Part shown: in pieces, positions 2,039 through 46,818 of the stretch | Layout: each line of letters starts with the position of its first letter | Numbering within the stretch: the stretch's first letter is position 1 | Assembly (NCBI GenBank): GCA_964440985.1 | Contig: CAYTWE010000004.1 | Span: 3,092-67,091 of the forward strand | Direction: 5' to 3' | DNA from: an uncultured Lentisphaeraceae bacterium | Lineage (GTDB): Bacteria; Verrucomicrobiota; Kiritimatiellia; RFP12; UBA1067 | Length of the DNA stretch: 64,000 nucleotides | Program-made: the position numbers and the translations under genes | The notes under the pieces: model-generated | Database searches by the model: none | Seen by the model: only the letters and a program-made list of their open reading frames with translations | Told to the model about the DNA's origin: nothing

Positions 2039-2109
2039 AACTCAGTCACTTAAATGCACATGACGCAATCAAAAGCCGGCAACAGGCAATCAATGCGCAA
2101 ATCCACATA

Positions 2110-7766: not shown

Positions 7767-7772
7767 ATCCCT

Positions 7773-9281: not shown

Positions 9282-9287
9282 GTCGGA

Positions 9288-12058: not shown

Positions 12059-12622
12059 TCAAATCAGACCGGGCAACAGCCAGCGGAACCAAGGACGCCG
12101 CTTCGCCGAAATGCCAACAGGCTTGCCTTTGTCACTTGTTAACGTCTCCCATGGCTTAATGCGAATCACCTGAACATCCTTGGGAAGAACGACCGGCTTA
12201 TCCTGGATCATGTTCACGCTCTTCATGTTCGCCGGGAAGCCGGTGGCTTCGCATTCGACCTCCTTGTAGAAGAAGTAGTCGCTCACCTTGTAGCGGTAAA
12301 GCGTACCCATGAGCGCATCTGCCTTCGCGTTCTCCAGCGCGTCATATGTGGCCGACGCCTTGGCTGCATGGATGCCCCAGTTGACATCAGGCGAAGGCAC
12401 GGGTGCAGACCTGCCATCGGAGGAGGCGAAAATCCAGAACCAGCAGGAGGATGTTCCCGTCCCCTTCACGCGCTCGTTCCTGATTGTGTAGTCGATGTAG
12501 TACGGATTGCAGCTTCCGTCCGACATCGTCGGCGCAAGTTGCGTATCGCGTTCAACATGATAGGATGTGCTGCATCCCGCCATCAGCAAGGCCGCACCGG
12601 CAACCATCATCATCTGTTTCAT
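12059..12622 (-). CDS. Hypothetical lipoprotein.
   Basis: Signal peptide with lipobox (MKQMMMVAGAALLMAGCS) and a GGAG RBS. No recognisable domain. Confidence 0.6.
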   Translation of the reverse strand: MKQMMMVAGAALLMAGCSTSYHVERDTQLAPTMSDGSCNPYYIDYTIRNERVKGTGTSSCWFWIFASSDGRSAPVPSPDVNWGIHAAKASATYDALENAKADALMGTLYRYKVSDYFFYKEVECEATGFPANMKSVNMIQDKPVVLPKDVQVIRIKPWETLTSDKGKPVGISAKRRPWFRWLLPGLI

Positions 12623-12698: not shown

Positions 12699-13271
12699 AT
12701 GTCAATTAAGATATCATTTTTTTTTTATTGTCAATCCCCCCCCCCCCCCCACACACACACACACACACACACCACCGCCACCACTGTGGATTGGGTCATT
12801 CCCCTGATCTCTGATGGCATCGACAGGACGGCGCTTCCCTTCGCAAACCGCGCCCCGCACGCGGCCGTTCCGCAGTTCGCGCCCAATGCCGCCGTCACTG
12901 TGACACGCAACAAGGGCAAGTCCCGCCACGGAAAGGATGTCGCACCGGTCTCAGTCTCCTTCCCGAACATCGCCGCCGCAGACCAGGCGGACAAGGCCGT
13001 GCGGCCTTTCGACTACGAGGTCACGGTCGAGGCAAAGGAGTGCGACTTCGATAAGACGTGGATGGTCAAGCGCGTCTATTCACCAGGCTTCTACCGTGGC
13101 GCGAAGAAAGACGAGCCGACAGCAACGTGCGTGTTTGCGGCGGAAGAACTGCCACGCGGCAACGGACATGAACCCATCGCGCGCGACCGCACGTTCCGAT
13201 TCGCCGTCCGTCCCGCCAACTGCTTCGGCGCATTGGGCCGCCCCATCCGGTCGGACTGGATGGTCGGATGA
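12699..13271 (+). CDS. Hypothetical ORF whose 5' end spans the T10, C15 and (AC)11 tracts (the only substantial plus-strand ORF here); coding status uncertain.
   Basis: 190-codon ORF with plausible amino-acid composition in its 3' two-thirds. There is no RBS or signal peptide. The repeats encode FFFY, PPPP and HTHTHT, so tract-length changes would shift the frame. Confidence 0.25.
   Translation: MSIKISFFFYCQSPPPPHTHTHTHTTATTVDWVIPLISDGIDRTALPFANRAPHAAVPQFAPNAAVTVTRNKGKSRHGKDVAPVSVSFPNIAAADQADKAVRPFDYEVTVEAKECDFDKTWMVKRVYSPGFYRGAKKDEPTATCVFAAEELPRGNGHEPIARDRTFRFAVRPANCFGALGRPIRSDWMVG
12700..12772 (-). promoter_or_regulatory. Promoter of the lipoprotein gene with an A10 homopolymer inside the -35/-10 spacer, flanked upstream by G15 and (GT)11 tracts; candidate phase-variable promoter.
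   Basis: On the minus strand the order is (GT)11, G15, A, TTGACA (reverse complement of 12729-12734), the 15-nt spacer AT-A10-TGA, then TATCTT (reverse complement of 12708-12713). TGA immediately precedes the -10, so it is an extended -10. The plus strand shows T10 at 12717-12726, C15 at 12736-12750 and (AC)11 at 12751-12772. Confidence 0.5.
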
Positions 13272-31385: not shown

Positions 31386-31392
31386 GTGCCGC

Positions 31393-31401
31393 ATTGTATC
31401 A
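31393..31401 (-). promoter_or_regulatory. Extended -10 (TGATACAAT) 7 nt upstream of the ATG, giving a leaderless transcript.
   Basis: The reverse complement is TTATGATACAAT-gcggcac-ATG. Confidence 0.45.
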
Positions 31402-33624
31402 TAATGAACCGCCGAGGACACGTGCAACGTGCGGAAGGAAGGCGGCGGACAACGCCTTGTATCCGGCGTCGGTCGGGTGGGCTGAATCCGACATCATCCC
31501 GTGCACGATGTCGCCGTTTGCGTCAACGAATCGTCCCCCCGCATTCTCAAAGCTGACCTTCCCGTCATATCCGTACGACGGGATTCGCGACAAAAGCGCA
31601 TTCAGCCTGTCCACGTTCCGGCGAAGCGGACTTCCCGGTGTCCCCGCCGGCAGGGCGCCCATCAGCAGAATGCGCGCCTGCGGCTGGATGCGCCGGATGC
31701 GGCCGATCAGGCCTCTGATCGCCTGCGCCGTCTCCTCCGGTGAATCCGCCTTCCCCTCTTCGTCCGGCACAAGGTTGTTTCTGCCGAGCATGATTACAAC
31801 CAGCTGTGTACGCACGTTCTTGAGTTCGCCGTTGTCGACTCGCCAAAGCGCGTTCTCCGTGCGGTCGCCAGCACAGCTCATGTTCATGACGCGCACACGG
31901 CGGTCGAACATCGCCTTCCAGCGCGGCAGCGTCAGCGAGTCGTCCGTCTCGCCGATGGAGTCGATGCCCGACCACAGATGGAGCGCATCGTCGCCGATGA
32001 ACACGACATTCGGATTCGTGCGCCATGTCTTGGCTTCCGCCAATATGTAGTCATGCCGTTCGCGCCAGTCATAGCCAACGGCCCGTACGTTCTCCGCCGG
32101 CTGCAGGGCACGGCTGGCCGGAACGCCCTCCGGCGTCGGGGCGGCGTTCACGCCCATCCGGCGAAGCCTCGGAATGTGATCGCCCATCCGCCGAAGGAAA
32201 TCGCCGTAATTGAGGGCGGACTTCTCCGACCACAGGATTTCCGCAACGGCGCACAGCCTCGGAAAGCCCTGCCACATAAGCTCTTCCGGAACACGTATTC
32301 CCTCCGACCAGAGAAGCCCCTCCGAACCCAGCACATGACCGGCAAATTCGCCGGGAACGCCGTCTGTCGGATCGAAAGAGTAGACGCGGGAAAGCGGCAG
32401 CCCGCCGCCGTCCGACCGCCACGGATCGTCGGGAATCCCCTGCTTCTGGTCAAGGTACATCAACCGGTTCGGACAGACCACGCAGTCGACGCCGTTCGTG
32501 GCGGCGAAAGCCGCCTTCTCCGTTCCAAGCCAGCACATGGCCGCCGTGTTTCCGCAGATGCCGCCGTCCAGCATCTCCTCCCAGCCAATGGCACGTTTGC
32601 CCTTCTTCATCAGATACTCCGCGAAATGGCGCATCAGCCACGTCTGCAGCGCATTCTCGTCCTTCAGCCCGGCGGACTTGATGCGGGCCTGGCATTTCGG
32701 ACACTTCCGCCAGCGGATCTTCGGACACTCGTCGCCGCCGATGTGGATGAACTCGGAATGCTTGAACAGGCGACAGTATTCGTCAAGAACGCTTTCAAGG
32801 AAGGCGATTGCGCGGTCGTTTCCGGCGCAGTACAGCTCGCGCTTGACGCCCCATTTCACGTCCACGCGGCGTTCAAGCCGCTCTCCAAGGCACGAGAATT
32901 CCGGATAGGCCGTAAGCGCGGCCCTGGAGTGTCCGGGAATCTCAAGCTCCGGCACGATCTTGACATGATGCCGTTCCGCGAACTCGACGATCTCCTTGAT
33001 ATCCTCCTCCGTGTAGAAATGCGGCCCGTACCGCCGTCCGTCGCCCTCAGCGGAGTTGTCGAAGCGCGGACTTTCCGCCCGAACTGCCCCCCGTGCCGTC
33101 AGCTCCGGCCATTTCCGGATCTCGATGCGCCACCCCTGGTCTTCCGTCAGGTGCCAATGCAGAACGTTCAGCTTGTTGAACGCCATGGCCTCGATTATCT
33201 TCTTGATCGTCTCCTTGCCGAAGAAATGGCGTCCTTCGTCCACAAGGCAGCCCCGCCAGCGGAAGCGCGGCCAGTCCCGTATGCGGCAGAACGGATACGA
33301 GACCTGCTCGCCCACGCCCTGCGCCAGCTGCCGAAGCGTAATCCGCGCATAAAACGCGCCGTCGCCGTCCGACGACGCCACGCGAACGCCACTGGCATCG
33401 ACCGTCAGTTCATATCCCGCTTTCGGCTGGGCCGCATCAAAGACGTCAACCACATTTGTGCCGCTGTACATCCCGTCACGCCATTCAACCTGCCGAGGCG
33501 CAGGAACGATCGACGGCAGGATGCCTGTGCCACCGGCACCCGCCCCCGCATATGCGAAAACGGCTACTGAACACGCAAGCGCGCAGACCGCGCCCCTCAC
33601 GGACATTTTCTTTTCACTCATCAT
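31399..33624 (-). CDS. Bifunctional secreted beta-N-acetylhexosaminidase (GH20) fused to a C-terminal SGNH/GDSL esterase domain.
   Basis: GH20 catalytic core (RFRWRGCLVDEGRHFF...LNVLHWHLTEDQGWRIEI). C-terminal VVFIGDDALHLWSG...LLMGALPAG matches SGNH blocks I and III. Signal peptide present. Confidence 0.7.
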   Translation of the reverse strand: MMSEKKMSVRGAVCALACSVAVFAYAGAGAGGTGILPSIVPAPRQVEWRDGMYSGTNVVDVFDAAQPKAGYELTVDASGVRVASSDGDGAFYARITLRQLAQGVGEQVSYPFCRIRDWPRFRWRGCLVDEGRHFFGKETIKKIIEAMAFNKLNVLHWHLTEDQGWRIEIRKWPELTARGAVRAESPRFDNSAEGDGRRYGPHFYTEEDIKEIVEFAERHHVKIVPELEIPGHSRAALTAYPEFSCLGERLERRVDVKWGVKRELYCAGNDRAIAFLESVLDEYCRLFKHSEFIHIGGDECPKIRWRKCPKCQARIKSAGLKDENALQTWLMRHFAEYLMKKGKRAIGWEEMLDGGICGNTAAMCWLGTEKAAFAATNGVDCVVCPNRLMYLDQKQGIPDDPWRSDGGGLPLSRVYSFDPTDGVPGEFAGHVLGSEGLLWSEGIRVPEELMWQGFPRLCAVAEILWSEKSALNYGDFLRRMGDHIPRLRRMGVNAAPTPEGVPASRALQPAENVRAVGYDWRERHDYILAEAKTWRTNPNVVFIGDDALHLWSGIDSIGETDDSLTLPRWKAMFDRRVRVMNMSCAGDRTENALWRVDNGELKNVRTQLVVIMLGRNNLVPDEEGKADSPEETAQAIRGLIGRIRRIQPQARILLMGALPAGTPGSPLRRNVDRLNALLSRIPSYGYDGKVSFENAGGRFVDANGDIVHGMMSDSAHPTDAGYKALSAAFLPHVARVLGGSL

Positions 33625-33641
33625 CAACACCTTTCCTTCCG

Positions 33642-33647
33642 ATTATA
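33642..33647 (-). promoter_or_regulatory. -10 hexamer TATAAT upstream of the GH20-SGNH gene, with a GGAAGGAAAGG RBS.
   Basis: The reverse complement is GGTATAATCGGAAGGAAAGGTGTTGATGATG. Confidence 0.4.
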
Positions 33648-33993
33648 CCGTCAGGCGCAAACTTATGTTCAGCGCCTTTCCCCGGCACGTAAGCGACGGA
33701 TAGAAGAGAACGATCCTTTCTGCGTCTGCCGTGACGGTCGGCGTCTGCTCCGCCCCCAGCACGGGCACCTCACGCTCCTCATGTCCGCCGCGCCGGTCGT
33801 CGAAATAGAGCCGCCACAGCTGTGCGCCGCCCGCCCAGTCATGCCCCGTCGCCTTGCATACGAGCGCCTTCAGTTCGCCCCTGTCTCCGACTTCGACGCG
33901 CACAAGGCCGTTCTCAAGACTTGCCGCCGCCGCTACTGACGCGACGCCGGCCAATGCCAGCGCGAGCAGACCGGTTTTTCGCGAATAATTCAT
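33643..33993 (-). CDS. Small secreted hypothetical protein (116 aa).
   Basis: Signal peptide MNYSRKTGLLALALAGVASVAAAAS. It could be a free-standing N-terminal-like domain or a gene remnant. Confidence 0.35.
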   Translation of the reverse strand: MNYSRKTGLLALALAGVASVAAAASLENGLVRVEVGDRGELKALVCKATGHDWAGGAQLWRLYFDDRRGGHEEREVPVLGAEQTPTVTADAERIVLFYPSLTCRGKALNISLRLTV

Positions 33994-33995
33994 CT

Positions 33996-36900
33996 TCACC
34001 TCTCCCATACCGCGACATCAAGCGGACCAAGTTCCGTCGACTGCGTTGTTCCAAACACGAACCGCCATTTGCCGTTCAATTCGATTCGCTTCCTCTCACG
34101 CGAGAGGTTGGCGAAAAACACGAGGTCGCGTCCATCCGCAGTACGCCCCGTGCGCCACATCACGCCGTACGGCGCCCGTGCGTCGTCCCTCGGCGGCGCG
34201 GCGAGCGCGGCGTAGTCCACCGGACGGTACGGCAGCGGCAGCGTCTGCCGACGCTCGCCGCGTTCGTCCTTCGCAAGCGCCGTCGGCGCGGAGAAGAGGA
34301 GCGTGCCGCCGTCGGCAACGAAGCGTTCGAGCGCAGCGTACACGCGGTCGGAGACGCGTCGTGCGTCGGGAAGCACGATCTTCTTGGCGCCCTTGAAATC
34401 TCCGCGCTCAAGGTCACGCTCCGTGATGAACCGCACCGCCCAGCCGGAGAATGACGCCTTGCCGTAGACGTCGTACAGCGACCGCACGTAGGCGTCGCGT
34501 TCGCCAAACGACGCGACGGAATGGAACAGCCGGAACGGCGGATCGGGCGTACGCCTGAACGCGGCGATCTCCTCCGGATGCGCCCGGCAGTCAAGCGCCG
34601 CACGAAGCGTCGCGTGGTATGTGTTCGCACGCGTGAACGCATACTCGCCGTACGTGTGACGTGTGTTCGCCCACTCCCAGATTGATGATGCGTTCAGCCC
34701 CATGAGAAACGCCAGCACGTTTGAGAGGTAGATTTCCTTCTCGGAATACTCCCTGTACACGCCGTCCACGATCACGTGCGTTTCGTTGTCGGCGATCGGC
34801 TTCTCCGGCGCAACGGAACGCGCAAAGTCAAGCTCGAACCCGCCCTTCGGGAAGTCCATCGCCCATTCACTTCCGTCCAGCCCGAATCCGCCGTCGAAGC
34901 CGACGATGTCGAAGATCTCCCACAGCCGCTCAAAATCCGCCATGACGACAAGCGGATCCAGCCCGGCAATGTTGTAGTGCGTGGAGTAGTGGACGGTCGT
35001 GGGCAGGCCAAAGCGCCGCTTGAGCCAGTCCTGCTGCGGAATCTCGCGGGCGATGTTTCGCTCTAACTGCGCCTGCATCCGTGCGAACTTCCCGCCCTCG
35101 TCGCCCGCCGGCGGCTTGGAGTCCCACTGCTCCGGGAATGACACCTGAAACACGAACGCCGGCGACGGATTGGACGGCACGAGCGAGCCAAGCCAATAGC
35201 CGCGCCCGCCACGATATGCGTTCTGCAGATCGGCGGACGCGACAGCCAGCGGGTCGTGCGCCGTCAGGTCATGCGAGGAGGCGTGCGCCGATCCCCAGGC
35301 GCAGTATACGCCGTTCGTCTCGCAGCGGCGCACGACGTCGGCGTAGTTCGTTCCGCCGATGTAGAAGCAGTTCACGAGGTTGAACCCGGTCTTCGCAATC
35401 CATTCGACGTCCGCATTCTCCCACCCGGCGACGTTCGTCCAGGTGTCAGGGCCAATCAGGAGAATCTCCCGACCGTCAACCTTGAACCCGCCCTCCGACG
35501 GCACGGGACGTACGCCACGCGGATACTTGACCGTCCGAAGCGGCGCAACCTTTCCGTCCGCAATGGCCCTCTGACGCGCCGCGAGTCCCCGTTGCAGCCG
35601 TTCGAGGTCGATGGCATTCTTCAACACGCGCTCATCCATGTAGTGCCGATATCCGTCCGTAATGGCCTTGCGCACATGACCGACGGCGATGTGTCCCTCG
35701 GCATCCAGGTCGCGTCGCATGAATTCCACGAAATAGTCCGTCATCGCCTTGACCGCGATGGAATACTCGTCGTCCTCTGCGACGCGCAGTGCGGCATTGG
35801 CGGCGGCGATCGCGTCCACCCTGCGGCGCAACTCGTCCCGCGTGGGCAGTTTGGCGCGTTCCGGCTCAAATCCCGTCTCTACGCGCACAAGGTCGACGAA
35901 CGGCCACAGTCTCGGGTCACGGCCGCCCAAAACACCATCGGCGACGCCCATCCAGTTCTCGACGGCATCGCCCCGATCCCGATCGACTACGCAGACGTTG
36001 AAGCGGATTCCGTCCTCACGCCGCATCCCGGCCTCGGCAAGTTCACGCCACTGGAATCTGACCTTAACCTCATCACCGGGATAGAAGCGCTCAAAGGTGC
36101 GCCCGCCAGCCGCATCGGCAAACACGACATGGACGCCGTCATCCTTTGTCTTCACGTCATCAGTGACGCGCACATCAACGTCAATGCCCTGTTCGGTCGC
36201 CGTCACGTGCGCGACGAACGAAAGATCGGAAGCGCCCGACCATGTCGGAGACGCGAGCGGACGATAGTCCTTCGTCTCGCTCCGACTGATTTCGCCGCCG
36301 GCAACGCCCCAATCGCACGCACGCAGCGCACGGAGTGCATCGAGATCCCTCGCGCCGCCTACGCGGCCAAACGCGATCGACTGCGCAATGCGTTCGCCTG
36401 GGGCGACGCCCCTTCCCTGACGCGGCGCGGGAATGTCGGCCTGGGCGCAGAACGTGCCGGGCTTGCCGTCACCACGCGGACAGAACGTCCCGAACTCGCG
36501 CCCCATGTACCACGTCTCGCCGCCAGTCGTGCGTCCAAGCACGTACCGCCCGGCCTTCACCTTGTAGCCGCCATCCTTCGACCGGAACTCCTTCGTCGTC
36601 GGGAACGGCGCAAATTCCGTCCCGTCAATGGCGTAGTCCGTCACCTCAAGCCCCATCCCCATGTTCCACGATATGAAATGGAACGGCTCCAGCACGTTCA
36701 GGCGCGAGGCCGCCACCACGCCGGGTACGCCCGGCTTCATCACGTAGTCTGTGACGAGCCGCGCCTTGGACCACGGTGTCGGCTTCTTGCCGTGCAGGTA
36801 GTCGTGCAAGGACAGCGAACGGTCTGCCCGCACGATGACGACTGGATTTGTGGCAAGCACCGAAAAGACGTCATCGCGCCCGTCGCACACGGCCGCCACC

Positions 36901-37043
36901 ATGCCGTCCGCTCCGGCGACGCGGATGTTCTGCGAGAACCGCCGCGCCCATCCCTTTGCATCGTCAATCGGCGAACCGGCCATCGCCGGGAGCACCAGCA
37001 CCGCAGCCAGCCCGGCAACGAACGCCCTCAACACCACATTCAT
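33996..37043 (-). CDS. Large secreted hypothetical glycoside-hydrolase-like protein (GH42/beta-galactosidase-trimerisation-like C-terminal region).
   Basis: Signal peptide MNVVLRAFVAGLAAVLVLPAMA, 1,015 aa. The C-terminal segment KIVLPDARRVSDRVYAALERFVADGGTLLF resembles glutamine-amidotransferase-like trimerisation domains of GH42. Confidence 0.4.
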   Translation of the reverse strand: MNVVLRAFVAGLAAVLVLPAMAGSPIDDAKGWARRFSQNIRVAGADGMVAAVCDGRDDVFSVLATNPVVIVRADRSLSLHDYLHGKKPTPWSKARLVTDYVMKPGVPGVVAASRLNVLEPFHFISWNMGMGLEVTDYAIDGTEFAPFPTTKEFRSKDGGYKVKAGRYVLGRTTGGETWYMGREFGTFCPRGDGKPGTFCAQADIPAPRQGRGVAPGERIAQSIAFGRVGGARDLDALRALRACDWGVAGGEISRSETKDYRPLASPTWSGASDLSFVAHVTATEQGIDVDVRVTDDVKTKDDGVHVVFADAAGGRTFERFYPGDEVKVRFQWRELAEAGMRREDGIRFNVCVVDRDRGDAVENWMGVADGVLGGRDPRLWPFVDLVRVETGFEPERAKLPTRDELRRRVDAIAAANAALRVAEDDEYSIAVKAMTDYFVEFMRRDLDAEGHIAVGHVRKAITDGYRHYMDERVLKNAIDLERLQRGLAARQRAIADGKVAPLRTVKYPRGVRPVPSEGGFKVDGREILLIGPDTWTNVAGWENADVEWIAKTGFNLVNCFYIGGTNYADVVRRCETNGVYCAWGSAHASSHDLTAHDPLAVASADLQNAYRGGRGYWLGSLVPSNPSPAFVFQVSFPEQWDSKPPAGDEGGKFARMQAQLERNIAREIPQQDWLKRRFGLPTTVHYSTHYNIAGLDPLVVMADFERLWEIFDIVGFDGGFGLDGSEWAMDFPKGGFELDFARSVAPEKPIADNETHVIVDGVYREYSEKEIYLSNVLAFLMGLNASSIWEWANTRHTYGEYAFTRANTYHATLRAALDCRAHPEEIAAFRRTPDPPFRLFHSVASFGERDAYVRSLYDVYGKASFSGWAVRFITERDLERGDFKGAKKIVLPDARRVSDRVYAALERFVADGGTLLFSAPTALAKDERGERRQTLPLPYRPVDYAALAAPPRDDARAPYGVMWRTGRTADGRDLVFFANLSRERKRIELNGKWRFVFGTTQSTELGPLDVAVWER

Positions 37044-40033
37044 CTTTCAACCTCCCTGATGGCGACGATGCACGGACGCGCCTTTGGATTCCACCGGAAC
37101 GAGGCCGCCGTCACCGTCTTGCCGGAGAGGACGTCATGGATTGACGCCTCGGCGGGCAGCCGCAGTTCCAGTTCGGTATCCGGCTGTGCGTTCAAGGCGC
37201 GTGTGCCTTTCATGACATTCCCTGCGTCCACGGCCCTTCCCGTCAGCAGCAGGATTCGCCGCCCGTCCGCCGTGCGAAAGTCCCCGCACGTGATTCCCGT
37301 CGCCACGCCGCCGCCCGACATCATCGCGATTTCATAATCGGCCTTCACGCCGCAGTCCGCAAGGAAATCGCGCAGGCCATCGACGAACGATGCATCATTC
37401 ACGTTAGGCAGCGACGGGCAGCAACGGTCGAGCATTCCGGCGAACGATGCTGTCGGCACACCGCGTTCGTCATGCCGGCCGCAACGGTCGTCCCCGACGA
37501 CAACGCCGCCGCGTGCGCGGAAGTCGCGGATTGCGTTGCGCGTCGTCTGCGACAGCGCCCAGCATTCCGGAAGGACAAGCACCTTGGCCGTTTCAAGCCG
37601 TTTCGCCAGCTGCGGCTCGCTCGTGTAGTCAAATCCGAGACGCAGCGTATGAAGCACCTTCTCCCACTGCTCCTGCGAACGGAACCAGTTGAGGTAGTGG
37701 CTTCCCTCCTTCTTTCCGCGAGCCTCCCAGTCGAACTGAAGCGGATCGTCACTTTCAAGCCAGGCAATGCCCATGCCGCCCTGCGCATAGAGGATGGTGA
37801 CGGGCATGGGTGCACGTTCGGCGGCGTTGATCAAGTCGCCCCATCCGCCGGAGACGAGCGGCGCAAGCGCGGCCTTCAACCGTCTGCCGTTCGCGCTCAA
37901 CAGTCCGTCCTCCGATAGATAGCCCTCACCCGTCGCCACGGTGTGCTGGACGGAACCGTACAGCATGATTCCCGTCGCGCCGTTGTTGACGGCGCTCCAG
38001 ACATCCATCTCGATGTTGTCGTAGTTTCCGTACCCAAGCCACGTCAACACGGGCGCACCCTTCCGCTTGAACGAGCGCACATACGCGCTCGGCCCGTAGT
38101 CCTGCCCTGACGTCCGGTTCGGGACAATCTTCGACGGATCGATCCCAGCCATCGGCGTCATCCACGTCCAGTTCGGCTGCCCAGTGGAGATGCGCGGGTT
38201 CTCGCGTCCGAACACATCGACCGCGACCTTCGACACCTCCGCGAGGACATCGTCCATGAACAGCCTGAACTCAAGCCATGACGCATAGTTCCGGTCGCCC
38301 TTCCGGCGGCGGCCGCGCATCTCGTCCGTGAGCGACGGCACAACGTCATCGAACGTCGCAAACGCCGTTCCCCATGCACGGTTCAGCGCGGCGACATCGC
38401 CGTACTTCGTGCGCATCGCGTTCCTGAACCGTGCAAGGCACGGCGCCATGCGGCACGGCTCAGAATCCTTGGCATGATAGTTCATCCAGGGCGCCGAGAG
38501 CGTCATCTCGTCTCCGATGGCATACGCGAACGGCTCACGTCCACGGGCCAGACGCGCATAGGCGGCAAACCCCGCCTCGGCGGCGGGCTTCCACGTGGCG
38601 TCGGAGAGGCATCCATTGCGCCAATGCTTCTTGACGGGATCGTTCCCGTAGCACGTACGCCCATGGACGCCCTGCTCCTGAAGCGCCGCCTCCACAATCG
38701 GATTCTCGCGGTTGACGATTCCGCCCCATCCGTCCGTCCACGCGAAGCCATGCTTCGCCGCATCGTACGCGCCGGGCATCCAGCAGTTTATCGCGTTTAT
38801 TCCGATGTCGCGCATGACGGGATAGAACTGCCGCCGGTAGTGTATCGGCATCCACAGATAGCCGGCGACTACGAATTTCCTGCGATCTTCAAAGCACGGG
38901 CGGACGGACAGCGGCGCGTCCGGCGTGTGCGTCCACGGCACGACCTCAAGTTCCCTGTCGAGAATGAGATCGGCGTACAGCAGCGACCACATCTCATTGT
39001 ACGGATAGCCGGCCTGTCGCTCATCGAAGTCGCTGAGTTCACGCGTCAGGTACACCTCATCCACCTCCGGCCAGATGGCGCTGCGGAAGAAGACGCGGCC
39101 GCGCAGAAGCAGCTCCACGACCATGCCGTCTCCGAACCGCCCCTCCGTGAGACTCGCGATTCCGTACCGGCCGCATCCCTTCGGGGAGATGCGCGAATAG
39201 TCTACGCCTTGCGGGAGCTCTCTTGGACGACCGAAGCGCCGGCCATATTCGGACGAGACGAAGACCGCCCGTCCGCCGCGCCGGACGTACGAGACGACGG
39301 CCTTCTCCTTCTTCTCGAACGCATCGGCGTTCGTTCCGGCAAAGAGCAGGACGTATTCGCCGTTCGAGAACCGTCTCTGCACCGTCTCCGGATCGGCAGT
39401 CGCGCCGTCATTGACGACGTCAACCTTCAGCCCGAATTGCCGTTCGAGGTCTTCTGCAACCCAGTCGAGACACGATCCGGACGCGAACAGCAGAACGCGC
39501 TGCGAAACCTTTTCCTTTGCGAAAACATGCAGCTTGCGCTCCGGGAAGCGTCCGCTCGCAGACGGCTTCCGCTCACGGCGCTTCAGACCCAGATTCAGTT
39601 CGACGTCATCCATCACCCGCAGCGACAGGTTGTTCAACGTGACGTTCACCGGCTTTGATACGAAGATGCGGAACTCGCCATCCTCGATTTTCCAGTCCAG
39701 ATCAACACGATCGCCGACAAACGCTCTGTCACACCGGAAGTCTATCCGCGCTCCAGACCCCGGTGACGACTTGAGTTTCTGTGACAGCAGCACGCCGGGC
39801 GTATCGCGCCGGACGGCGACAAGGAAGTCCTCGCTGAGATAGTCGCGCTCCCGATACTCAAACGCCACGTCGCCGGGGATGCGCCAGTCAGCCGGCGTCT
39901 TTCCGTCAAACGACTTTGCGTCAAGCGAACCGTTCGCAAGAAGTTCAGCGTCTGCGGCTTGTGCCGCGACTGCCGCCGCAAGGCATACGACCGCAACGCA
40001 TAGGCGCCGTGCGCAGGATTTCGTCGCCGTCAT
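37040..40033 (-). CDS. Large secreted hypothetical glycoside-hydrolase-like protein, distantly similar in architecture to the preceding gene.
   Basis: Signal peptide, 997 aa. KVLVLPECWALSQTTRNAIRDFRARGGVVV is a similar C-terminal module. The start overlaps the upstream stop (ATGA). Confidence 0.4.
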   Translation of the reverse strand: MTATKSCARRLCVAVVCLAAAVAAQAADAELLANGSLDAKSFDGKTPADWRIPGDVAFEYRERDYLSEDFLVAVRRDTPGVLLSQKLKSSPGSGARIDFRCDRAFVGDRVDLDWKIEDGEFRIFVSKPVNVTLNNLSLRVMDDVELNLGLKRRERKPSASGRFPERKLHVFAKEKVSQRVLLFASGSCLDWVAEDLERQFGLKVDVVNDGATADPETVQRRFSNGEYVLLFAGTNADAFEKKEKAVVSYVRRGGRAVFVSSEYGRRFGRPRELPQGVDYSRISPKGCGRYGIASLTEGRFGDGMVVELLLRGRVFFRSAIWPEVDEVYLTRELSDFDERQAGYPYNEMWSLLYADLILDRELEVVPWTHTPDAPLSVRPCFEDRRKFVVAGYLWMPIHYRRQFYPVMRDIGINAINCWMPGAYDAAKHGFAWTDGWGGIVNRENPIVEAALQEQGVHGRTCYGNDPVKKHWRNGCLSDATWKPAAEAGFAAYARLARGREPFAYAIGDEMTLSAPWMNYHAKDSEPCRMAPCLARFRNAMRTKYGDVAALNRAWGTAFATFDDVVPSLTDEMRGRRRKGDRNYASWLEFRLFMDDVLAEVSKVAVDVFGRENPRISTGQPNWTWMTPMAGIDPSKIVPNRTSGQDYGPSAYVRSFKRKGAPVLTWLGYGNYDNIEMDVWSAVNNGATGIMLYGSVQHTVATGEGYLSEDGLLSANGRRLKAALAPLVSGGWGDLINAAERAPMPVTILYAQGGMGIAWLESDDPLQFDWEARGKKEGSHYLNWFRSQEQWEKVLHTLRLGFDYTSEPQLAKRLETAKVLVLPECWALSQTTRNAIRDFRARGGVVVGDDRCGRHDERGVPTASFAGMLDRCCPSLPNVNDASFVDGLRDFLADCGVKADYEIAMMSGGGVATGITCGDFRTADGRRILLLTGRAVDAGNVMKGTRALNAQPDTELELRLPAEASIHDVLSGKTVTAASFRWNPKARPCIVAIREVER

Positions 40034-41427
40034 CTCTGCGATGCCTTTCGCTCAAGCACGATGGCAGGACGGAAGGAGTTGTACCCGCCTCTACCCTGCT
40101 TCAGGTAGAACGCCGCCCGTGCGGCGGAGCGGCAGCGATCCGCGCTCGAAAGCCAATCCCCTCCGCGAACCACCGCATGGAATCCGTTTCCGTCAGTCGC
40201 AACGACATTCAGGGGTTCGACTACAGGTTTGTCGCCGAGGTCGTTCCTGCACGTCGTCCAGTCCACAACATCGCGGCAGATCTCACCAGCATTTCCGTGC
40301 ATGTCGTAGAATCCCCAGGCGTTCGGCAGATACCTGCCACCGACACCAGGCTGATTGCCCTGATCCCAAACGCCGTTGCGGCTGCAGTAGTTGCCGAGAA
40401 GATCCATGACCGTATTGGCATAGAAGCCGTCCTTGTAGGCCGTCTTGCCGTTATCGGTGTAGACGCCGTAGTAGTCGCCCTCACCCGCACCTGCGTTCCA
40501 CGAACCGTCCGTTCCGGCGCGGCAGGCGTACTCCCACTGCGCCTCGGTCGGCAGGTCAAGCGTGTAGCCGGGCGGAAGGCAGTTCGCCGCCGACGAACGG
40601 AAACGCCCAAAGAACGATTCCGGATCTACATCCGTGCAGGTGTTGTTCCAGTAGTCCGTCGTGTATCCGCGAAGCGAATACAGGAAGAACTCGTTGGAAT
40701 CGGAACTCAAGAACGTCGGACGCCAGGCTTGCTTGGCATAGTAGTCATCGTCGACCTGCGTCATGACATTCGTCTCCCACACCTTGAACGACTGCGCGTA
40801 CGTCAATTCAAAGAGCGCAAGGTAGAAGTCGTTGGTGAACGTAACAAGATGCCGCGCCTCCGGCAAGGCCGCGATATTGTTGGTATATGCCACCACGCGC
40901 TTTGACTCCGCCTCAGGTGACCCCATGAAATACGAACCGGCCCGGCAGCGACGGAACGCTATCTTCGTTGTCTTGTACACGTCCGTGTTGAACCCGCCCT
41001 CCGGCGGCGCATCCATCTGCTCGGCGGTGTATGTTCCGCCGACCCCGGCCGAAAGATCCATGACAAGATAGCGTCTGCCGACCGGCTGCGCGAGCGAAAG
41101 GCTGAACGTCAGCCCAATGCGCGGTACAGCGGATGTGACTCCGGCGGCGACTGGATTCCATACGAGACGATGCGTCCCGGCCTTCACGTATTCCAGATCA
41201 CCGCTCTGGGCGGCGTAAGCACCGGTGACGTCATTCCCTTCCGGGTCTGTAACCTTGAGAACGACATCCCATCCGACATCGCCGTTCGAGTCGCCGTCTA
41301 TTCTGTACTCGATGACTGTCTTTGCGTTCCATGGCCACATCTGCGAAATCTTCACGGGAGTGACCGTGGCGCCGTACGAGGCAAGGCCCGCCACGGCATA
41401 AACAAGAACGATTGCCGCTTTTTTCAT
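40030..41427 (-). CDS. Secreted FGE/SUMF1-domain (formylglycine-generating-enzyme-like) protein, paralogue A.
   Basis: Signal peptide MKKAAIVLVYAVAGLASYG, central F.MGSPE and C-terminal RGGDW...RSAAR...FRPAIV FGE-domain motifs. TGATG start/stop overlap with paralogue B. Confidence 0.6.
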   Translation of the reverse strand: MKKAAIVLVYAVAGLASYGATVTPVKISQMWPWNAKTVIEYRIDGDSNGDVGWDVVLKVTDPEGNDVTGAYAAQSGDLEYVKAGTHRLVWNPVAAGVTSAVPRIGLTFSLSLAQPVGRRYLVMDLSAGVGGTYTAEQMDAPPEGGFNTDVYKTTKIAFRRCRAGSYFMGSPEAESKRVVAYTNNIAALPEARHLVTFTNDFYLALFELTYAQSFKVWETNVMTQVDDDYYAKQAWRPTFLSSDSNEFFLYSLRGYTTDYWNNTCTDVDPESFFGRFRSSAANCLPPGYTLDLPTEAQWEYACRAGTDGSWNAGAGEGDYYGVYTDNGKTAYKDGFYANTVMDLLGNYCSRNGVWDQGNQPGVGGRYLPNAWGFYDMHGNAGEICRDVVDWTTCRNDLGDKPVVEPLNVVATDGNGFHAVVRGGDWLSSADRCRSAARAAFYLKQGRGGYNSFRPAIVLERKASQR

Positions 41428-42797
41428 CACTTCACCTCCCACACTATTGCCGGACGCACAGTATACTGCGCCGCCGTCGGCAGCCAGCCTTTCCGTCGCG
41501 ATGCGCTGCGGCAGTTCTCCGCGCCGGTCAGCCATCCGCCGCCACGCGCAATGGCACCCATCCTGTTAGAATCGAACCAGACGTAGAGCGGCTCCACGGC
41601 CTCAGCGCTGCCAAGGTCGGCATTGCCGTTGGACTCCACGGCCGCATCGCGGCAAAACTCCTCGCAGTTGCCGTACATGTCATAGAAACCCCACGGATTC
41701 GGCGCGTACCGGCCAACGGTCGATGGCTGCACCGCCTGTCGCCACACGCCGCCGTTTGCGCAATACTGTCCAAGCGAATCAAGTGCCGCAAGATGGTAGA
41801 ACGGCAATTCACGGGAATTGTAGCTTCCGAAGTCAGTGACACGCACATAATCGTTGGAGGTGGGTGAGACACCGCTGGAATAGGCAGTGTCCGTTCCGGC
41901 GCGGCAGGCGTACTCCCACTGCGCCTCGGTCGGCAGGTCAAGCGTGTAGCCGGGCGGAAGGCAGTTCGCCGCCGACGAACGGAAGCGGCCGAAGAACGAA
42001 TTTGGCTCAACCTGCGAATCCGTCCTGTTCCACCATGTGTAGTCCGAACCACGGAAGCTGAGCGGCGTTTCGACCCCGTAGAACACCTTCGTGCTGTCCG
42101 CCGAACACGTCTTGTTCGTCTCCCAGATTCGCGCCGACTGCCCCTCGGTCAGTTCGAAGATCGCAAGCCAGAAATCATTGGTGAACGTGACGAGATGGCG
42201 CGTCTCGGCAAATAGCAGGGTGTTGTCGTTGCGGGTTTCATATGGCTGTGAAACGCGCATTGCCTCGGTCTCCGGCGATCCCATGAAATACGAACCCGCC
42301 TTGCAGCGACGGAACGCCATCTTGCGGGTCTTGTACTCGTTCGTGTTGAACCCGCCCTCCGGCGGCGCATCCATCTGCTCGGCGGTGTATGTTCCGCCGA
42401 CCCCGGCCGAAAGGTCGATTACAAGATACTTCGGCCCGGACGGCTGGCCGAGCGTCACCTCGAATTTGAGCAGTGTTTCGCGGGCGATCTCGCATCCGGC
42501 GACCTTCGGATTCCACCAGATGTCATGTTCGCCGGCGGACACGAACTCGATGTCGCCAGTCTGTGCCGCAAGCGTACCGGTGACGTCGTTGCCGAGCGGG
42601 TCTGTGACCCGAAGCGAAACATCGTACACCTCGCCCGCCGCCGCGTCGAGCACATAGTTGACGCGCACCCGTCCGTCCCACGGCCATTGCTGTCTCACAA
42701 TCTGCGAAACCACCTGCGCCCCGTTCGCCACGCACGCAAACGCGGCAAACACCGCAAAAAGACCAGGAGTTGCCGACATGTTCATTTTCATTGCCAC
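41427..42797 (-). CDS. Secreted FGE/SUMF1-domain protein, paralogue B (tandem duplicate of the preceding gene).
   Basis: Same architecture. YLVIDLSAGVGGTYTAEQMDAPPEGGFNT and the downstream segment are identical to paralogue A, including roughly 115-bp and 85-bp identical DNA tracts. Confidence 0.6.
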   Translation of the reverse strand: MAMKMNMSATPGLFAVFAAFACVANGAQVVSQIVRQQWPWDGRVRVNYVLDAAAGEVYDVSLRVTDPLGNDVTGTLAAQTGDIEFVSAGEHDIWWNPKVAGCEIARETLLKFEVTLGQPSGPKYLVIDLSAGVGGTYTAEQMDAPPEGGFNTNEYKTRKMAFRRCKAGSYFMGSPETEAMRVSQPYETRNDNTLLFAETRHLVTFTNDFWLAIFELTEGQSARIWETNKTCSADSTKVFYGVETPLSFRGSDYTWWNRTDSQVEPNSFFGRFRSSAANCLPPGYTLDLPTEAQWEYACRAGTDTAYSSGVSPTSNDYVRVTDFGSYNSRELPFYHLAALDSLGQYCANGGVWRQAVQPSTVGRYAPNPWGFYDMYGNCEEFCRDAAVESNGNADLGSAEAVEPLYVWFDSNRMGAIARGGGWLTGAENCRSASRRKGWLPTAAQYTVRPAIVWEVK

Positions 42798-42801
42798 ACC
42801 T

Positions 42802-43446
42802 CTATTTGACCGTGATCATAAACGCCCGACGTACGCCAACGGACATGGAAAAAGGCTTGCCGTCCACGACGGCGGTGAGCAGATCGCCTTCGCCGGAGAG
42901 TGCCAGCGTCTGCCAGCCGGGTGCGTCCATCGTCGGAGGAAGCTCTTCGCCTCCGAATGTCACGTTTGATACGCTTTCAGGCAGCAGAACGACCGGATGC
43001 CTGACTGATGCCCGTGACCAATGCCCGCGTCGTGCCTCGTCCTTGACGCAGACCGAATCGCCGACCCCTGTTCCCACGACAAGCCCCAGCGATGCGGATA
43101 CCGCCGATACCTCAGTTCCTTCTGCATCCTGATATGACACAGAGATGGTGATTATGCGTTCGCCTGTGGCATCGGACGGAAGCGAGAACGGAACAGAAAC
43201 TGAATCCGCCGTCACGTCGGAACTGGTCGCAACAGTTCTCCCGTCAACGCTGACGACGGCGCTGACGGCGCCAGTCGGCCAATCAAGCGCAACATCAGAC
43301 GATGCGGCGGTCACAGTCTTCCACGACAGCGACTCCGCCGGATTGACGCAGATCAGCGCGTTGGTTGAGGTGGCCCCGGATGCTCCAGCCACGGCGCACA
43401 GGGCAACTGCCACAGACGCACATAAAGTTCCTGCAATGTTATTCAT
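42802..43446 (-). CDS. Secreted Ser/Thr/Val-rich hypothetical protein, first gene of the FGE-domain operon.
   Basis: Signal peptide MNNIAGTLCASVAVALCAVAGASG, GGAGAAG RBS, low-complexity S/T/V-rich body. Its stop overlaps the next start. Confidence 0.5.
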   Translation of the reverse strand: MNNIAGTLCASVAVALCAVAGASGATSTNALICVNPAESLSWKTVTAASSDVALDWPTGAVSAVVSVDGRTVATSSDVTADSVSVPFSLPSDATGERIITISVSYQDAEGTEVSAVSASLGLVVGTGVGDSVCVKDEARRGHWSRASVRHPVVLLPESVSNVTFGGEELPPTMDAPGWQTLALSGEGDLLTAVVDGKPFSMSVGVRRAFMITVK

Positions 43447-43493
43447 AGCGCTTCTCCAATGGAACAAAGTATGCCTTTAAATAAATTGCAGCG

Positions 43494-43521
43494 ATTATAC
43501 ATTTTTTTTTTCTACGGTCAA
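43494..43521 (-). promoter_or_regulatory. Near-consensus sigma70 promoter TTGACC-16 nt-TATAAT whose spacer contains an A10 tract; candidate phase-variable promoter of the secreted-protein/FGE-domain operon.
   Basis: Reverse complement of 43516-43521 is TTGACC; the spacer is GTAG-A10-TG; reverse complement of 43494-43499 is TATAAT. The plus strand shows T10 at 43502-43511. Confidence 0.55.
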
Positions 43522-43542
43522 TCCATCTGCGAAAGCTGTCCA

Positions 43543-44607
43543 TTATTGCTCTTGACGCTTCAGGTGGCGGTCGAGAAAGACGTAGCCGGTCTCTGTTGCG
43601 GATGGCGGCGGACGGTGTCCCTGTGCGTGATTCACGAGTTTCAGCCTTTCTGGGTTGCGTTCATATCCGGAAGCCCTGCGCATGAGCGCACCGCTTGAAT
43701 CGTCATCATAGCGTCCGGCTATCAGGCAGAACGGTTTGCCGCCCGAAAGTGAGAGAAGCCCCGCATGATCCATGCCTTTGGCGCGCACTTCGTCAAGTTT
43801 TCCGCCCCAATACCACACATCGCTCCAGTTGGACTGATCCCAGCGAATCCCGAAATCGCTTGCGACAATCACCTTTATGCGCGAATCGATGCACCCCGCA
43901 TAGAAAGCCATCTTGCCGCCGAGCGAATGACCGATGATTCCGATGCGGTTGGTGTCTACACGCGCATCCTCGCAGAGCAGATCGATGAGAAGCCGCGTAT
44001 CGAACGCAAGCTTTCCGATGCCGGTCCAATCCGGATGGTCTGCGAGAAGTTTTCGTCCCGCGTGTCCCCATTTCGCCCACTGGTCTTTCGGTGCATTTGC
44101 CGGGTCGTACATAAGGTGGTAGGCGTCCGCCGAAATTGTCACATAGCCGCGTTTCGCGAGATCCGACATGTACGACACGGCGGCATAGAACGTCAGGTTC
44201 GTTCCTGATGGAGCGAGCGGAGAATCTGCACTCCCGGTTCTCGGATCGAATCCAAGCGTCGCCTCCGGAAAGTAGAACGGGACAACAACCGCCGGCAACG
44301 GATATCGGTCTGCGCCGACTTTCGGCACCGCCATCATCACACGCTGTTCCGTGGATGGGCCGTTGGCCTGGCGGAACTCCTCGACGTCAAACTCTGTGAA
44401 CCGGTACACGCCGACCTTTTCCACTTTGCGCGGAAACGCCGCATACGACGGCGGCGCTTCGATGTATGCCCCCCAATCAGATGCCGACGGCATCGATGCA
44501 CGCTTCACTTCATTTGGGGATGCGCATCCCGCTGATGCTGCGCCAAACGCAAGAAGCGGTATGCATCCTATCAGCAAGGCACATCTCTTCATGAGGACAT
44601 GATTCAT
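43543..44607 (-). CDS. Secreted alpha/beta-hydrolase (carbohydrate-esterase-like).
   Basis: Signal/lipobox-like N-terminus and nucleophile elbow GHSLGG. Coupled ATGA overlap with the upstream CN-hydrolase gene. Confidence 0.55.
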   Translation of the reverse strand: MNHVLMKRCALLIGCIPLLAFGAASAGCASPNEVKRASMPSASDWGAYIEAPPSYAAFPRKVEKVGVYRFTEFDVEEFRQANGPSTEQRVMMAVPKVGADRYPLPAVVVPFYFPEATLGFDPRTGSADSPLAPSGTNLTFYAAVSYMSDLAKRGYVTISADAYHLMYDPANAPKDQWAKWGHAGRKLLADHPDWTGIGKLAFDTRLLIDLLCEDARVDTNRIGIIGHSLGGKMAFYAGCIDSRIKVIVASDFGIRWDQSNWSDVWYWGGKLDEVRAKGMDHAGLLSLSGGKPFCLIAGRYDDDSSGALMRRASGYERNPERLKLVNHAQGHRPPPSATETGYVFLDRHLKRQEQ

Positions 44608-45656
44608 TTGATTTCGCCGCCGCGAAGTTCAACAGAGCGGCTGTAGTAGTCGTCCCAGAGGATGAGACCGAACTCCTTAATCAGATTGTCGACCGGAACG
44701 GATGGATCGTTGGAGAGGAACGTCACGCATCCGACAGCGCCCGGATTGCGCACTTCGACCTTCTGGCCGTACTTGTCGACGGCATGTTGCAGTCCGCCCC
44801 AATTGTCATCAAGATGGCATACACGGTAGTTGGTGTTGATGCGGAAAGTCCCCGTGCGGAAATATCCCTGCGAATGGAATATCGCCTCGCCGGACGGCCC
44901 CCATACGTCCTTGGCGAGTTCGCCAAGCGTCGCCCCGACAAAGTAGCTCTGGCAGGTGTAGGCCCATACGCGCTGCCAGAAGTCGCCGTGATAGGCGCTG
45001 GAGAAGCAGATCACATCAGGCTTTTCGCGCCTGTATGCTTCGATCAGGTCGCGGAAGTTGAGGTCGAAGCATACGGCAAACCCAACTCGCCCGAAATCCG
45101 TATCGATCACAACCGGACTGTCGCCCGGAACGATCGGGAGTTCCTTCCAGAGTATTTCCCCCGGCGTCGGATATGCCTTGTCGTATACGCCCACCACATC
45201 ACCTTCGCGGTCTATGAGATAGGAGGCGTTGGCAAAGCGTCCGTCCTTTCGCTGACGATAGGAGTTGAACACAAGATATGCGCTGTGTTCCTTCGCATAG
45301 CGCTGAAACTCCTTGAGCAGCAGATCGCCGCGCCGCTTCACCCAATCGAACTTGTCGGCGGGGGTTGCGCCGAGCCATGAATCCACACCCTCCGGCAGAA
45401 CGATCAAATCAGGTTTGTTGGCGATCTCCTTGTCCATCCCGCCTTTCCAGTGGCGGAAACATTCTTCGACGGTGGGCTTGCGCCCTTTCGGAAGCGCGGG
45501 ACGCGCCAATCCGATGATCGATACCGTAATCTCCCGCCGGACGACCTTGACCTGCTTCTTCACCGGCACGGGATCGCACGGCGGCGGAAATACTTCATCG
45601 CAGACACCGACATAAACAGACGCCACTGAGCAAACAGCCAAAATTATTCTTTTCAT
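44604..45656 (-). CDS. Secreted carbon-nitrogen hydrolase (nitrilase superfamily).
   Basis: CN-hydrolase blocks (RVGFAVCFDLNFRD with catalytic Cys) and a signal peptide MKRIILAVCSVASV. The start is set at the internal Met; the transcript is leaderless. Confidence 0.6.
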   Translation of the reverse strand: MKRIILAVCSVASVYVGVCDEVFPPPCDPVPVKKQVKVVRREITVSIIGLARPALPKGRKPTVEECFRHWKGGMDKEIANKPDLIVLPEGVDSWLGATPADKFDWVKRRGDLLLKEFQRYAKEHSAYLVFNSYRQRKDGRFANASYLIDREGDVVGVYDKAYPTPGEILWKELPIVPGDSPVVIDTDFGRVGFAVCFDLNFRDLIEAYRREKPDVICFSSAYHGDFWQRVWAYTCQSYFVGATLGELAKDVWGPSGEAIFHSQGYFRTGTFRINTNYRVCHLDDNWGGLQHAVDKYGQKVEVRNPGAVGCVTFLSNDPSVPVDNLIKEFGLILWDDYYSRSVELRGGEIK

Positions 45657-45664
45657 GGCGGCAA

Positions 45665-45673
45665 TGATACCAT
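45665..45673 (-). promoter_or_regulatory. Extended -10 (TGGTATCAT) 8 nt upstream of the CN-hydrolase ATG (leaderless).
   Basis: The reverse complement is ATGGTATCAT-tgccgcc-ATG. Confidence 0.4.
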
Positions 45674-46712
45674 ATCGGCATCCTTTATCAAACCGAAATC
45701 CGATTGCCACTTGTCAAAGCAGCACGATAATCCTTGAAATCCGTGGCAAACAAACGATGTGTGGACACAACGACGCAGGGAGAGAAGCGGAGCGAGACCT
45801 TCAGGCGCATGGCCGCCCCTTCTTCATGCGCACACGCAGGACGACCTTACGGCGCGGCAGGGCGGCCAGCGAGATGGGTACGGATGCCAACCGTTGCCGC
45901 TCCTTGAGGAAGTCGCCGACCGCCTGAAGTTGGCACAAGGCGAAGGCAATCCGAAAAAGTGTACTAAAGACACTAAGAGCCAAGGTCAAGACCAACTTCA
46001 GAAGAAGCAAATGCACATTCGGAGCAACTGAATGCGACCATGGGTCATCGTGGCACAAATTCAGTCGCATATGCTCTGACAAGTGACAGCCGGAATCCAA
46101 TGTCAACCACCAATCCGCTTTTGGAGGTTCCCCAAATTTTTATTGGCGGACGAGGCGTCGCGCAGGTTGCGTCATCCGGTAGGGCGCGACGTCCCTGTCG
46201 CGCCGGGTTGTATCATGCGGGCGCGGAAGTTCGTTGCTTTCGCTGCGGTGAGTTCTGGAGTTTTGGAGTTCGGGGCGAATTGTGGAACGACCTCGCGCCT
46301 CCAAGCCTTCGAAACTCCCGGTAGCTAAAGCGACAGCAGCACTGCGGCATCTGCCCGCAGAAGATCTCTTCGAGGGTGTGCTGTGGACGCGCTCTGTGTT
46401 CCCGTAGCCGAGTTTTCACTTGGCGCAACGTGAAAACCGCGACATCGCCCTTTGTTTACAGCGGTTCAGAGATTTTCTTGCCCGAAAAAATGGGGGATCT
46501 CCAACCAATCCGCTTGGATTGCAATTCACCTGTCAGACACCTGACTGCTTGCGTTTGCTCTTGTATTGATTAAGAAGAAAAGCAAACGTGCGTCTTCAGA
46601 ACGTCAACTTCACAAGCGACACCCATCTGCCCTTCCGCCAGAATCAGCTTAAGCAGACGCCGACTTCTGACAGACGTAATCCAAATCGGCAAATACGCCA
46701 CACAACGAATGA

Positions 46713-46800
46713 TGGCGGAGGGGGGGGGATTCGAACCCCCGGTGGACTTGCGCCCACACAACCTTTCCAAGGTTGCACCATCGACCACTCGGACACCCCT
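46713..46800 (-). tRNA. tRNA-Ser (anticodon GGA), 88 nt with a long variable arm and an encoded CCA.
   Basis: The reverse complement is GGAGGGGTGTCCGAGTGGTCGATGGTGCAACCTTGGAAAGGTTG...GGGGGTTCGAATCCCCCCCTCCGCCA. The anticodon loop is uuGGAaa. It has a type-II tRNA cloverleaf. Confidence 0.85.
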
Positions 46801-46818
46801 CCAAACGAAAAACGGCAC

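Follow-up and report, generated by a model that had tools for sequence, protein, structure and literature searches.

The 64,000-nt stretch of DNA analysed here (the window) very probably contains a real promoter with a run of ten adenines in its spacer (locus 2), 47 nt upstream of the first gene of an eight-gene operon on the minus strand. Among near-identical public assemblies the run is found with nine, ten or eleven adenines, and we favour, with some reserve, a reading in which expression is modulated by tract length.

The promoter places a TTGACC −35 hexamer and a TATAAT −10 hexamer on either side of a 16-nt spacer, GTAG-A10-TG, exactly as a sequence-only reading had proposed, and lies on the minus strand at 43521-43494 (Table 1). 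With 11 of 12 hexamer positions at consensus, it has the top sigma-70 score in the 64 kb. A scan of both strands of the whole window, requiring at least 10 of 12 hexamer matches and spacers of 15-19 nt, returned only nine sites, and both A10 runs of the window lie inside such sites. The spacer TG directly adjoins the −10 hexamer and is thus not at the canonical extended −10 position. Transcription is predicted to start near 43487, at the A of CGCTGCA. To judge from the tRNA-Ser gene (46713-46802, minus strand), which is preceded by TTGCGT-17-TATAAT, the source organism uses canonical promoters; A tracts are missing from other window promoters (tRNA-Ser, tpiA and a CN-hydrolase gene).

Runs of this length are rare in the window. 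The only A/T runs of 8 nt or more are T10 at 12717-12726 and T10 at 43502-43511, each within a promoter-like spacer, and the expected number of runs of at least 10 nt is between 0.012 (independent bases) and 0.049 (first-order Markov). The probability that a random 10-nt block of the window lies 2-6 nt downstream of a −35-like hexamer and 2-4 nt upstream of a −10-like one is p = 0.003, which takes the placement of both A10 runs (2/2) well outside chance. The earlier statements that A10 runs are otherwise absent from the 64 kb, and that two such sites are unlikely to be chance, are thus upheld (0.01-0.05 runs expected, p = 0.003 per random block); its figure of 62% GC is not, as the window measures 59.4% G+C. 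A scan of JGI metagenomes for the exact promoter pattern (TTGACCGYAG-A8+N0-4-TGTATAAT) gave 0 matches.

Table 1. Elements of the locus-2 promoter, genes of its operon, and the A-tract promoters of the clade; positions are those of the window.
Feature	Position	Strand	Sequence or description
−35 hexamer, locus 2	43521-43516	minus	TTGACC; 5/6 consensus; same in the 87% and 81% relatives
Spacer, locus 2	43515-43500	minus	GTAG-A10-TG, 16 nt; GTAG at 43515-43512, TG at 43501-43500
A10 homopolymer	43511-43502	minus	T10 on the plus strand; length-variable element
−10 hexamer, locus 2	43499-43494	minus	TATAAT; 6/6; unchanged across three A-tract lineages
Discriminator and 5′UTR	43447-43493	minus	47 nt; Shine-Dalgarno GGAG at 43457-43454, before the gene 1 ATG
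Gene 1	42802-43446	minus	214-aa secreted protein without family; signal peptide, 21% Ser+Thr, beta-rich
Gene 2	41427-42797	minus	Secreted FGE-sulfatase-fold protein, about 452 aa from ATG; PF03781, E=4e-17
Gene 3	40030-41427	minus	Secreted FGE-fold paralogue, 465 aa from MKKAAIV; PF03781, E=1e-16
Gene 4	37040-40033	minus	997-aa secreted GH42-like protein; 4-nt ATGA overlap
Gene 5	33996-37043	minus	1015-aa secreted protein; weak matches to GH42 M and C domains; 4-nt overlap
Genes 6-8	28983-34008	minus	121-aa unknown; GH20 hexosaminidase fused to GDSL esterase (743 aa); 814-aa unknown
A-tract promoter, window locus 2	43521-43494	minus	TTGACC-GTAG-A10-TG-TATAAT; spacer 16; 8-gene operon
A-tract promoter, window locus 1	12734-12708	minus	TTGACA-AT-A10-TGA-TATCTT; spacer 15; 10/12; 187-aa lipoprotein gene (12059-12622)
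A-tract promoter, L024-26			TTGACA-GGTGAG-A10-TGG-TACAAT; spacer 19; 78% ortholog of the locus-1 lipoprotein; flanks differ
A-tract promoter, L028/L029 (GCA_964386385.1)			TTGCAA-TCAGGG-A10-TGC-TATTAT; spacer 19; 138-aa lipoprotein homolog
A-tract promoter, L028/L029 (GCA_964386385.1)			TTGCGG-AGGG-A9-GAA-TATAAT; spacer 16; 1224-aa protein with signal peptide
A-tract promoter, L031 (ArgRS 91% identical species)			TTGACA-TGGGG-A9-CAAT-TATAAT; spacer 18; gene of unknown product; locus ends

The locus-2 promoter was compared with contig L011, whose gene 1 product is 87% identical, and with L012-L014 and L017, in which it is 81% identical. L017, a metagenome-assembled genome (MAG), was the one match to gene 1 among GTDB species genomes and holds the ortholog at a syntenic locus. 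The 28-nt core promoter differs by one substitution from the 87% relative and by none from the 81% relatives, whereas each comparison finds 11 differences among the 47 nt of the 5′UTR (binomial p = 0.01 for the 87% and 0.0006 for the 81% relatives), and gene 1 itself has diverged by 11-17% at the nucleotide level. The L011 spacer has one substitution, GTAG to GCAG; otherwise the spacers differ only in the length of the A run. L011 has a different upstream gene and becomes clearly similar to the window only from about the −35 hexamer onward, so the promoter cassette belongs to gene 1. In a 62% relative (L015, L016), the same position is occupied by TTGCAA-17-TATACT with a mixed-sequence spacer and no tract. 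Because this ortholog has an ordinary 17-nt spacer and no run, the A tract is a derived feature of the sub-clade, one that leaves the spacer one base under 17. In the species with 91% identical ArgRS (L030-L033, L039), locus 2 is absent because synteny ends after ArgRS; no tract of locus 2 could be counted there, but L031 supplied another A9 promoter (Table 1).

Recurrence of the design in the clade

We collected every distinct A/T run of at least 9 nt in the DNA obtained from the close clade, which yielded six runs from about 120 kb of partly biased sampling (Table 1). Each of the six is oriented toward a gene and is followed, after 2-4 nt, by a −10-like hexamer; the product was readable in three cases and has a signal peptide in all of them (3/3). 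The flanks are unrelated apart from the design, and a mobile cassette copied six times was therefore rejected. The tract of locus 1 is also A10 in contigs L018 and L027. A wider set of ArgRS-linked loci adds up to 802 kb, in which ArgRS identity is 75% or less except at the five closest loci (about 39 kb). These 802 kb contain 115 runs of 6, 30 of 7, 9 of 8, 2 of 9 and 1 of 10; apart from L031, they provide one A9 and one A10, neither with the geometry of the six.

The six spacers measure 15, 16, 16, 18, 19 and 19 nt, and 17 never occurs, an absence that fits “detuned”, switchable promoters. The tracts are 9-10 nt long and always A on the non-template strand, with TG following directly in four of the six. 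Spacing alone predicts neither the steady length of about 10 nor the strand bias. Since the length stays near 10 across spacers of 15-19 nt, and always on one strand, the tract may have a sequence-specific role besides, or instead of, setting the spacing.

The same regularities could come from a static promoter element, in which the run is a rigid, AT-rich spacer of one helical turn that aids RNA polymerase, or a regulator site, and changes of one base either way are near-neutral noise. We regard this as the main alternative, possible though unlikely. A fixed tract of 9-10 in spacers of 15-19 nt, its orientation and its usual TG are what such an element would show, as is an A10 majority allele in all three species examined below; yet an AT-rich spacer needs no perfect homopolymer, and perfect runs over the slippage threshold resemble contingency loci. 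Spacer sequence by itself alters promoter output in other bacteria (PMC5066175) and, as a looser parallel, verified promoters of Chlamydia, also of the PVC superphylum, are AT-enriched in their spacers (PMC2743672), but the promoters of tRNA-Ser, tpiA and the CN-hydrolase and the 62% ortholog do without A tracts. Were the six promoters optimised for strength, it would be odd for all of them to miss the optimal spacer length of 17 nt, and length changes recur in two species.

Other repeats were observed near the sister promoter at locus 1. C15 (12736-12750) and (CA)11.5 (12750-12772) adjoin each other 1 nt from its −35 hexamer. With the A10 they make up a set of three hypermutable repeats spanning 56 nt, in the interval that separates the lipoprotein gene from a possible divergent ORF (GTG at 12786). 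Contigs L018 and L027 both begin inside the −35 hexamer, 5 nt from the poly-G/C run. In L028 (positions 1-9356, GCA_964386385.1), the A9 promoter is preceded by a block encoding an HNH protein, a BsuBI/PstI-type restriction enzyme, a DNA methylase, a Ser/Thr kinase and an ECF-like sigma factor. More distant Lentisphaerota contain C11 (L100 18748-18758), G11 (L075 17726-17736) and G9 (L057 289-297) runs, the first within TTG-C11-TTGTAAAAATG... at a site that looks intergenic; these G/C runs may represent another flavour of repeat-bearing regulatory site.

Tract length among related assemblies

Exact-protein look-ups in public assemblies gave contigs from three related species, so that the tract could be read in 18 assemblies: the window, 12 contigs of the window species, one of the 87% species, three of the 81% species and the 81% MAG. 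The run is A10 in 15, A9 in two and A11 in one, corresponding to spacers of 16, 15 and 17 nt. In the window species, the window itself and 11 contigs (L001-L009, L110, L111) have A10, and L010 has A9. The 87% species has A10 (L011), and the 81% species has A10 in L012 and L014, A11 in L013 and A9 in the MAG (L017). Changes in length thus recur in two species, with at least three independent changes in the 10-nt tract. The sequence-only reading had looked to populations and relatives for length polymorphism, and A9, A10 and A11 alleles do occur among near-identical assemblies; it had also pointed out that one extra A would give a 17-nt spacer, and the A11 of L013 is such an allele. Over 3.9 kb, L013 and L012 (A10) are distinguished by only 6 SNPs. 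Because SNPs separate the contigs, they represent distinct populations, although they are not independent, as many come from few shared sequencing projects. The A10 majority (15/18) would also be expected if the optimum were fixed and departures from it occasional, whether neutral or erroneous.

The T-arm of the tRNA-Ser gene provides a control in the form of a G9/C9 run (46720-46728). It measures 9 in the window, L012, L013, L014, L017 and L031, including the four contigs with A tracts of 9, 10, 10 and 11, and in tRNA-Ser(GGA) it is exactly 9 in all relatives holding the gene. No other homopolymer varies in the aligned 3.8-3.9 kb. Three small indels outside repeats were found in the same alignments, namely an inserted base at 45674 in L002, 3 nt in frame in L005 and one at position 217 in L012, so indel polymorphism is not unique to the tract. 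Set against these three indels in the rest of about 3.8-3.9 kb per species, the tract changes represent a more than 100-fold enrichment per base, as expected of a run that would be hypermutable.

The polymorphism data are consensus assemblies, in which some sequencing error may persist, and it is conceivable, though improbable, that the promoter and tract are real but that A9 and A11 arose as homopolymer errors during the sequencing or assembly of low-coverage contigs, with no biological variation in length. Just three of the 18 assemblies deviate, by one base each, but more than one pipeline produced them, as Logan contigs and as a co-assembled MAG, and reads and k-mers are both amply longer than an A10 run. 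In favour of error, contigs from Logan are short, with a coverage that is probably low, and odd single-base indels occur elsewhere in the same contigs; against this, the 9-base G/C run of the tRNA-Ser gene was assembled alike in A9, A10 and A11 contigs, and the other aligned homopolymers are invariant. One Logan contig, L113, ends in a Nextera adapter (CTGTCTCTTATACACATCT, 2240-2258), and artefacts are thus present in such assemblies.

The operon and its upstream neighbourhood

The operon runs from 43446 to 28983, its neighbouring genes overlapping or separated by no more than about 12 nt, and stops ahead of the tpiA promoter, TTGCAA-18-TATAAT (28938-28909). The gene 2 ATG lies 10 nt past the gene 1 stop codon, and the gene 3 start overlaps the gene 2 stop codon by 1 nt. 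The sequence-only reading described an operon of a secreted Ser/Thr-rich protein and two secreted FGE-domain paralogues. Secreted products do lie downstream, to judge from their signal peptides, but the genes number eight and not three. Gene 1 has four clusters in a 5.8-billion-protein collection, all from Logan metagenome assemblies, and an AlphaFold2 prediction of its product from a four-sequence alignment gave an unusable model (mean pLDDT 40).

For genes 2 and 3, the “FGE-domain” label stands as far as the PF03781 fold is concerned. Their nearest named models and solved chains are GldK/PorK-type lipoproteins; no solved FGE was matched at E ≤ 0.001, only PorK/GldK-type chains, and the best NCBIfam models (GldK, PvdO, GldJ) score far under their cut-offs. 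On these grounds, we would not label them formylglycine-generating enzymes. Both proteins have a single Cys in the motif RGG(G/D)WL..A(E/D)(N/R)CRSA, and FGEs carry C-x4-C at the corresponding position. The two genes (40030-42797) share stretches of DNA that are about 73% identical. Twelve public contigs of the window species extend to gene 1, and 10 of these stop inside gene 2, with eight breaking off at 42365-42384. A second module in the 62% relative L015 (1-3885) consists of a 201-aa small protein, an FGE-fold protein and a DUF6259 protein beside an AraC-type regulator, and the pair of a small secreted and an FGE-fold protein is thus a repeated module in the group. With two GH42-like proteins and a GH20/GDSL protein, the cargo of the operon is predicted to be mainly a secreted glycan-degrading set. 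The suggestion that the two A10 promoters reflect a shared strategy for surface-associated factors therefore holds for the design, which recurs at locus 1 and in four promoters of close relatives, and less well for the cargo, which is mainly glycan-degrading rather than classic surface antigens.

Upstream of gene 1 lie co-directional alpha/beta-hydrolase and CN-hydrolase genes with their own promoter, and no terminator was predicted between them and gene 1 (43446-43543). Because these genes are co-directional and no terminator is recognisable, the A-tract promoter is internal and would add to any read-through. That the run is not part of a promoter at all, but a terminator tail, an insertion remnant or chance, with the operon transcribed only from upstream, is highly improbable: the upstream arrangement would allow it and the start site rests on prediction, but the run has no adjacent hairpin and no plus-strand gene for T10 to end, the hexamers are the best match in 64 kb (11/12) and under purifying selection, the L011 cassette goes with gene 1 and not with the upstream gene, and the same geometry occurs at five other A-tract sites. 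T10 as a terminator was rejected for the same lack of an adjacent hairpin and of a plus-strand gene to terminate. An Rfam search of the intergenic region matched only the tRNA, and RNA folding of the intergenic region and 5′UTR gave no structure signal (z = 0.75); on these results, a riboswitch, leader or terminator in the intergenic region was rejected.

Exact-protein look-ups of the upstream hydrolase, in 354-aa and 316-aa forms, returned no record. The CN-hydrolase promoter (45656-45691) reads TTGATA-16-TATCAT with TG before the −10 hexamer, and the called ATG lies only 7 nt past that hexamer, which suggests a leaderless mRNA. The L002 insertion falls at a non-repeat site in the spacer of this promoter and changes it from 16 to 17 nt. 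Relative to the related MAG (L017), the window has an 877-nt insertion at 45716-46592, about 120 nt downstream of the tRNA-Ser 3′ end, in which a short GAGTTCTG repeat and a 101-aa ORF, unmatched by any family, are found. Window position 46194 is the common start of contigs L001-L005, and L006 is strongly divergent above about 46080; this spot appears to be strain-variable.

Possible effect on expression, and its parallels

Sigma-70 promoters depend on the length of their spacer, for which 17 nt is optimal, and as a rule of thumb A/T tracts of about 9 or more slip often. Poly-A/T tracts slip less than poly-G/C tracts, which counts against a switch. Locus 2 shows the sequence-level features of transcriptional phase variation mediated by simple sequence repeats (SSRs), with a repeat between the hexamers, a length over background and polymorphism with conserved flanks. 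We think it somewhat better than an even bet that the locus is a spacer-length switch or rheostat of the porA/vlp type. Slipped-strand mispairing during replication would add or remove one A, setting the distance between the −35 and −10 hexamers at 15 nt (A9), 16 nt (A10) or 17 nt (A11) and shifting their rotational register as well. Because both hexamers are near consensus (5/6 and 6/6), the output is predicted to be maximal with A11, intermediate with A10 and low with A9; with spacers of 15, 16 and 17 nt between such hexamers, a rheostat and an ON/OFF switch are equally likely. Each lineage would thereby have a heritable, reversible setting for the level of an eight-gene operon of secreted glycan-degrading or glycan-binding proteins, probably as a variable boost over read-through from the co-directional upstream genes. 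Locus 2 belongs to a small group of promoters with A9-10 spacers within this Lentisphaeraceae clade.

Promoter spacers with a homopolymer that acts as a switch are well established in a few host-adapted pathogens such as Neisseria, Mycoplasma and Helicobacter. In Mycoplasma hyorhinis, Yogev, Citti and Wise are said to have described vlp lipoprotein promoters with poly(A) between the −35 and −10 hexamers, in tracts of about 17. The likeness, as reported, lies in a coding-strand poly(A) in the spacer, several such genes per genome and lipoprotein or surface products, as at locus 1; the difference is that the Mycoplasma tracts are reportedly longer and that the genes here are not a paralogous family. 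Mycoplasma genomes are AT-rich and long A runs arise easily in them, whereas the A runs here are extreme outliers in 59% G+C DNA. For sabA of Helicobacter pylori, Aberg et al. (2014) and Harvey et al. (2014) reportedly found a poly-T “rheostat” that grades expression through DNA geometry. That case is said to share an A/T homopolymer beside the core promoter, but to have its tract at or upstream of the −35, whereas here it lies between the hexamers.

A further parallel is porA of Neisseria meningitidis, in which a poly-G run lies between the −35 and −10 and transcription is lost once the spacer drops below the optimal 17 nt, as stated in a summary of van der Ende et al. 1995 (PMC7864442). On the terms of that summary, the two systems share a homopolymer wholly within a sigma-70 spacer, one-base changes that shift the spacer toward or away from 17 nt, and an exported product. 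They differ in that porA has poly-G and controls one porin of a pathogen, whereas the tract here is poly-A, in a GC-rich uncultured Lentisphaeraceae bacterium, and precedes a 14.5-kb enzyme operon. Within the PVC superphylum, the spacers of verified Chlamydia promoters contain 38% A and 33% T, as against 28.5% each genome-wide (PMC2743672). The A/T-biased spacers of these sigma-66 promoters and their PVC host resemble the present case, but they are a general promoter feature, with no homopolymer and no length variation, rather than the property of a few genes (PMC2743672).

No account of phase variation in Lentisphaerota/Lentisphaerae came up in a full-text search of the literature; of two matching papers, the one listed was a Chlamydia pan-genome study with a single mention of Lentisphaerae. 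Stochastic heterogeneity in glycan foraging is mostly tied to invertible promoters in Bacteroides. Locus 2 is probably a known trick in a new bacterial group, with added interest from the GC-rich host, the enzyme-operon cargo and the recurrence across the clade. The recurrent A10-(TG)-TATAAT motif is a simple search key for other genomes of the clade, and the claim is testable from existing metagenome reads. As a tentative extension, which we hold to be rather doubtful, a narrow clade of GC-rich Lentisphaeraceae may have evolved a set of A9-11 spacer switches that stochastically tune secreted glycan-foraging operons and lipoproteins, an SSR “phasome” by which a commensal or environmental PVC bacterium would hedge its nutritional bets, in place of immune evasion by a pathogen, with the A tract also having a strand-specific role in recognition by the polymerase. 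If the tract does tune expression, the logic of contingency loci would reach an uncultured, GC-rich member of the PVC superphylum and operons of carbohydrate-active enzymes.
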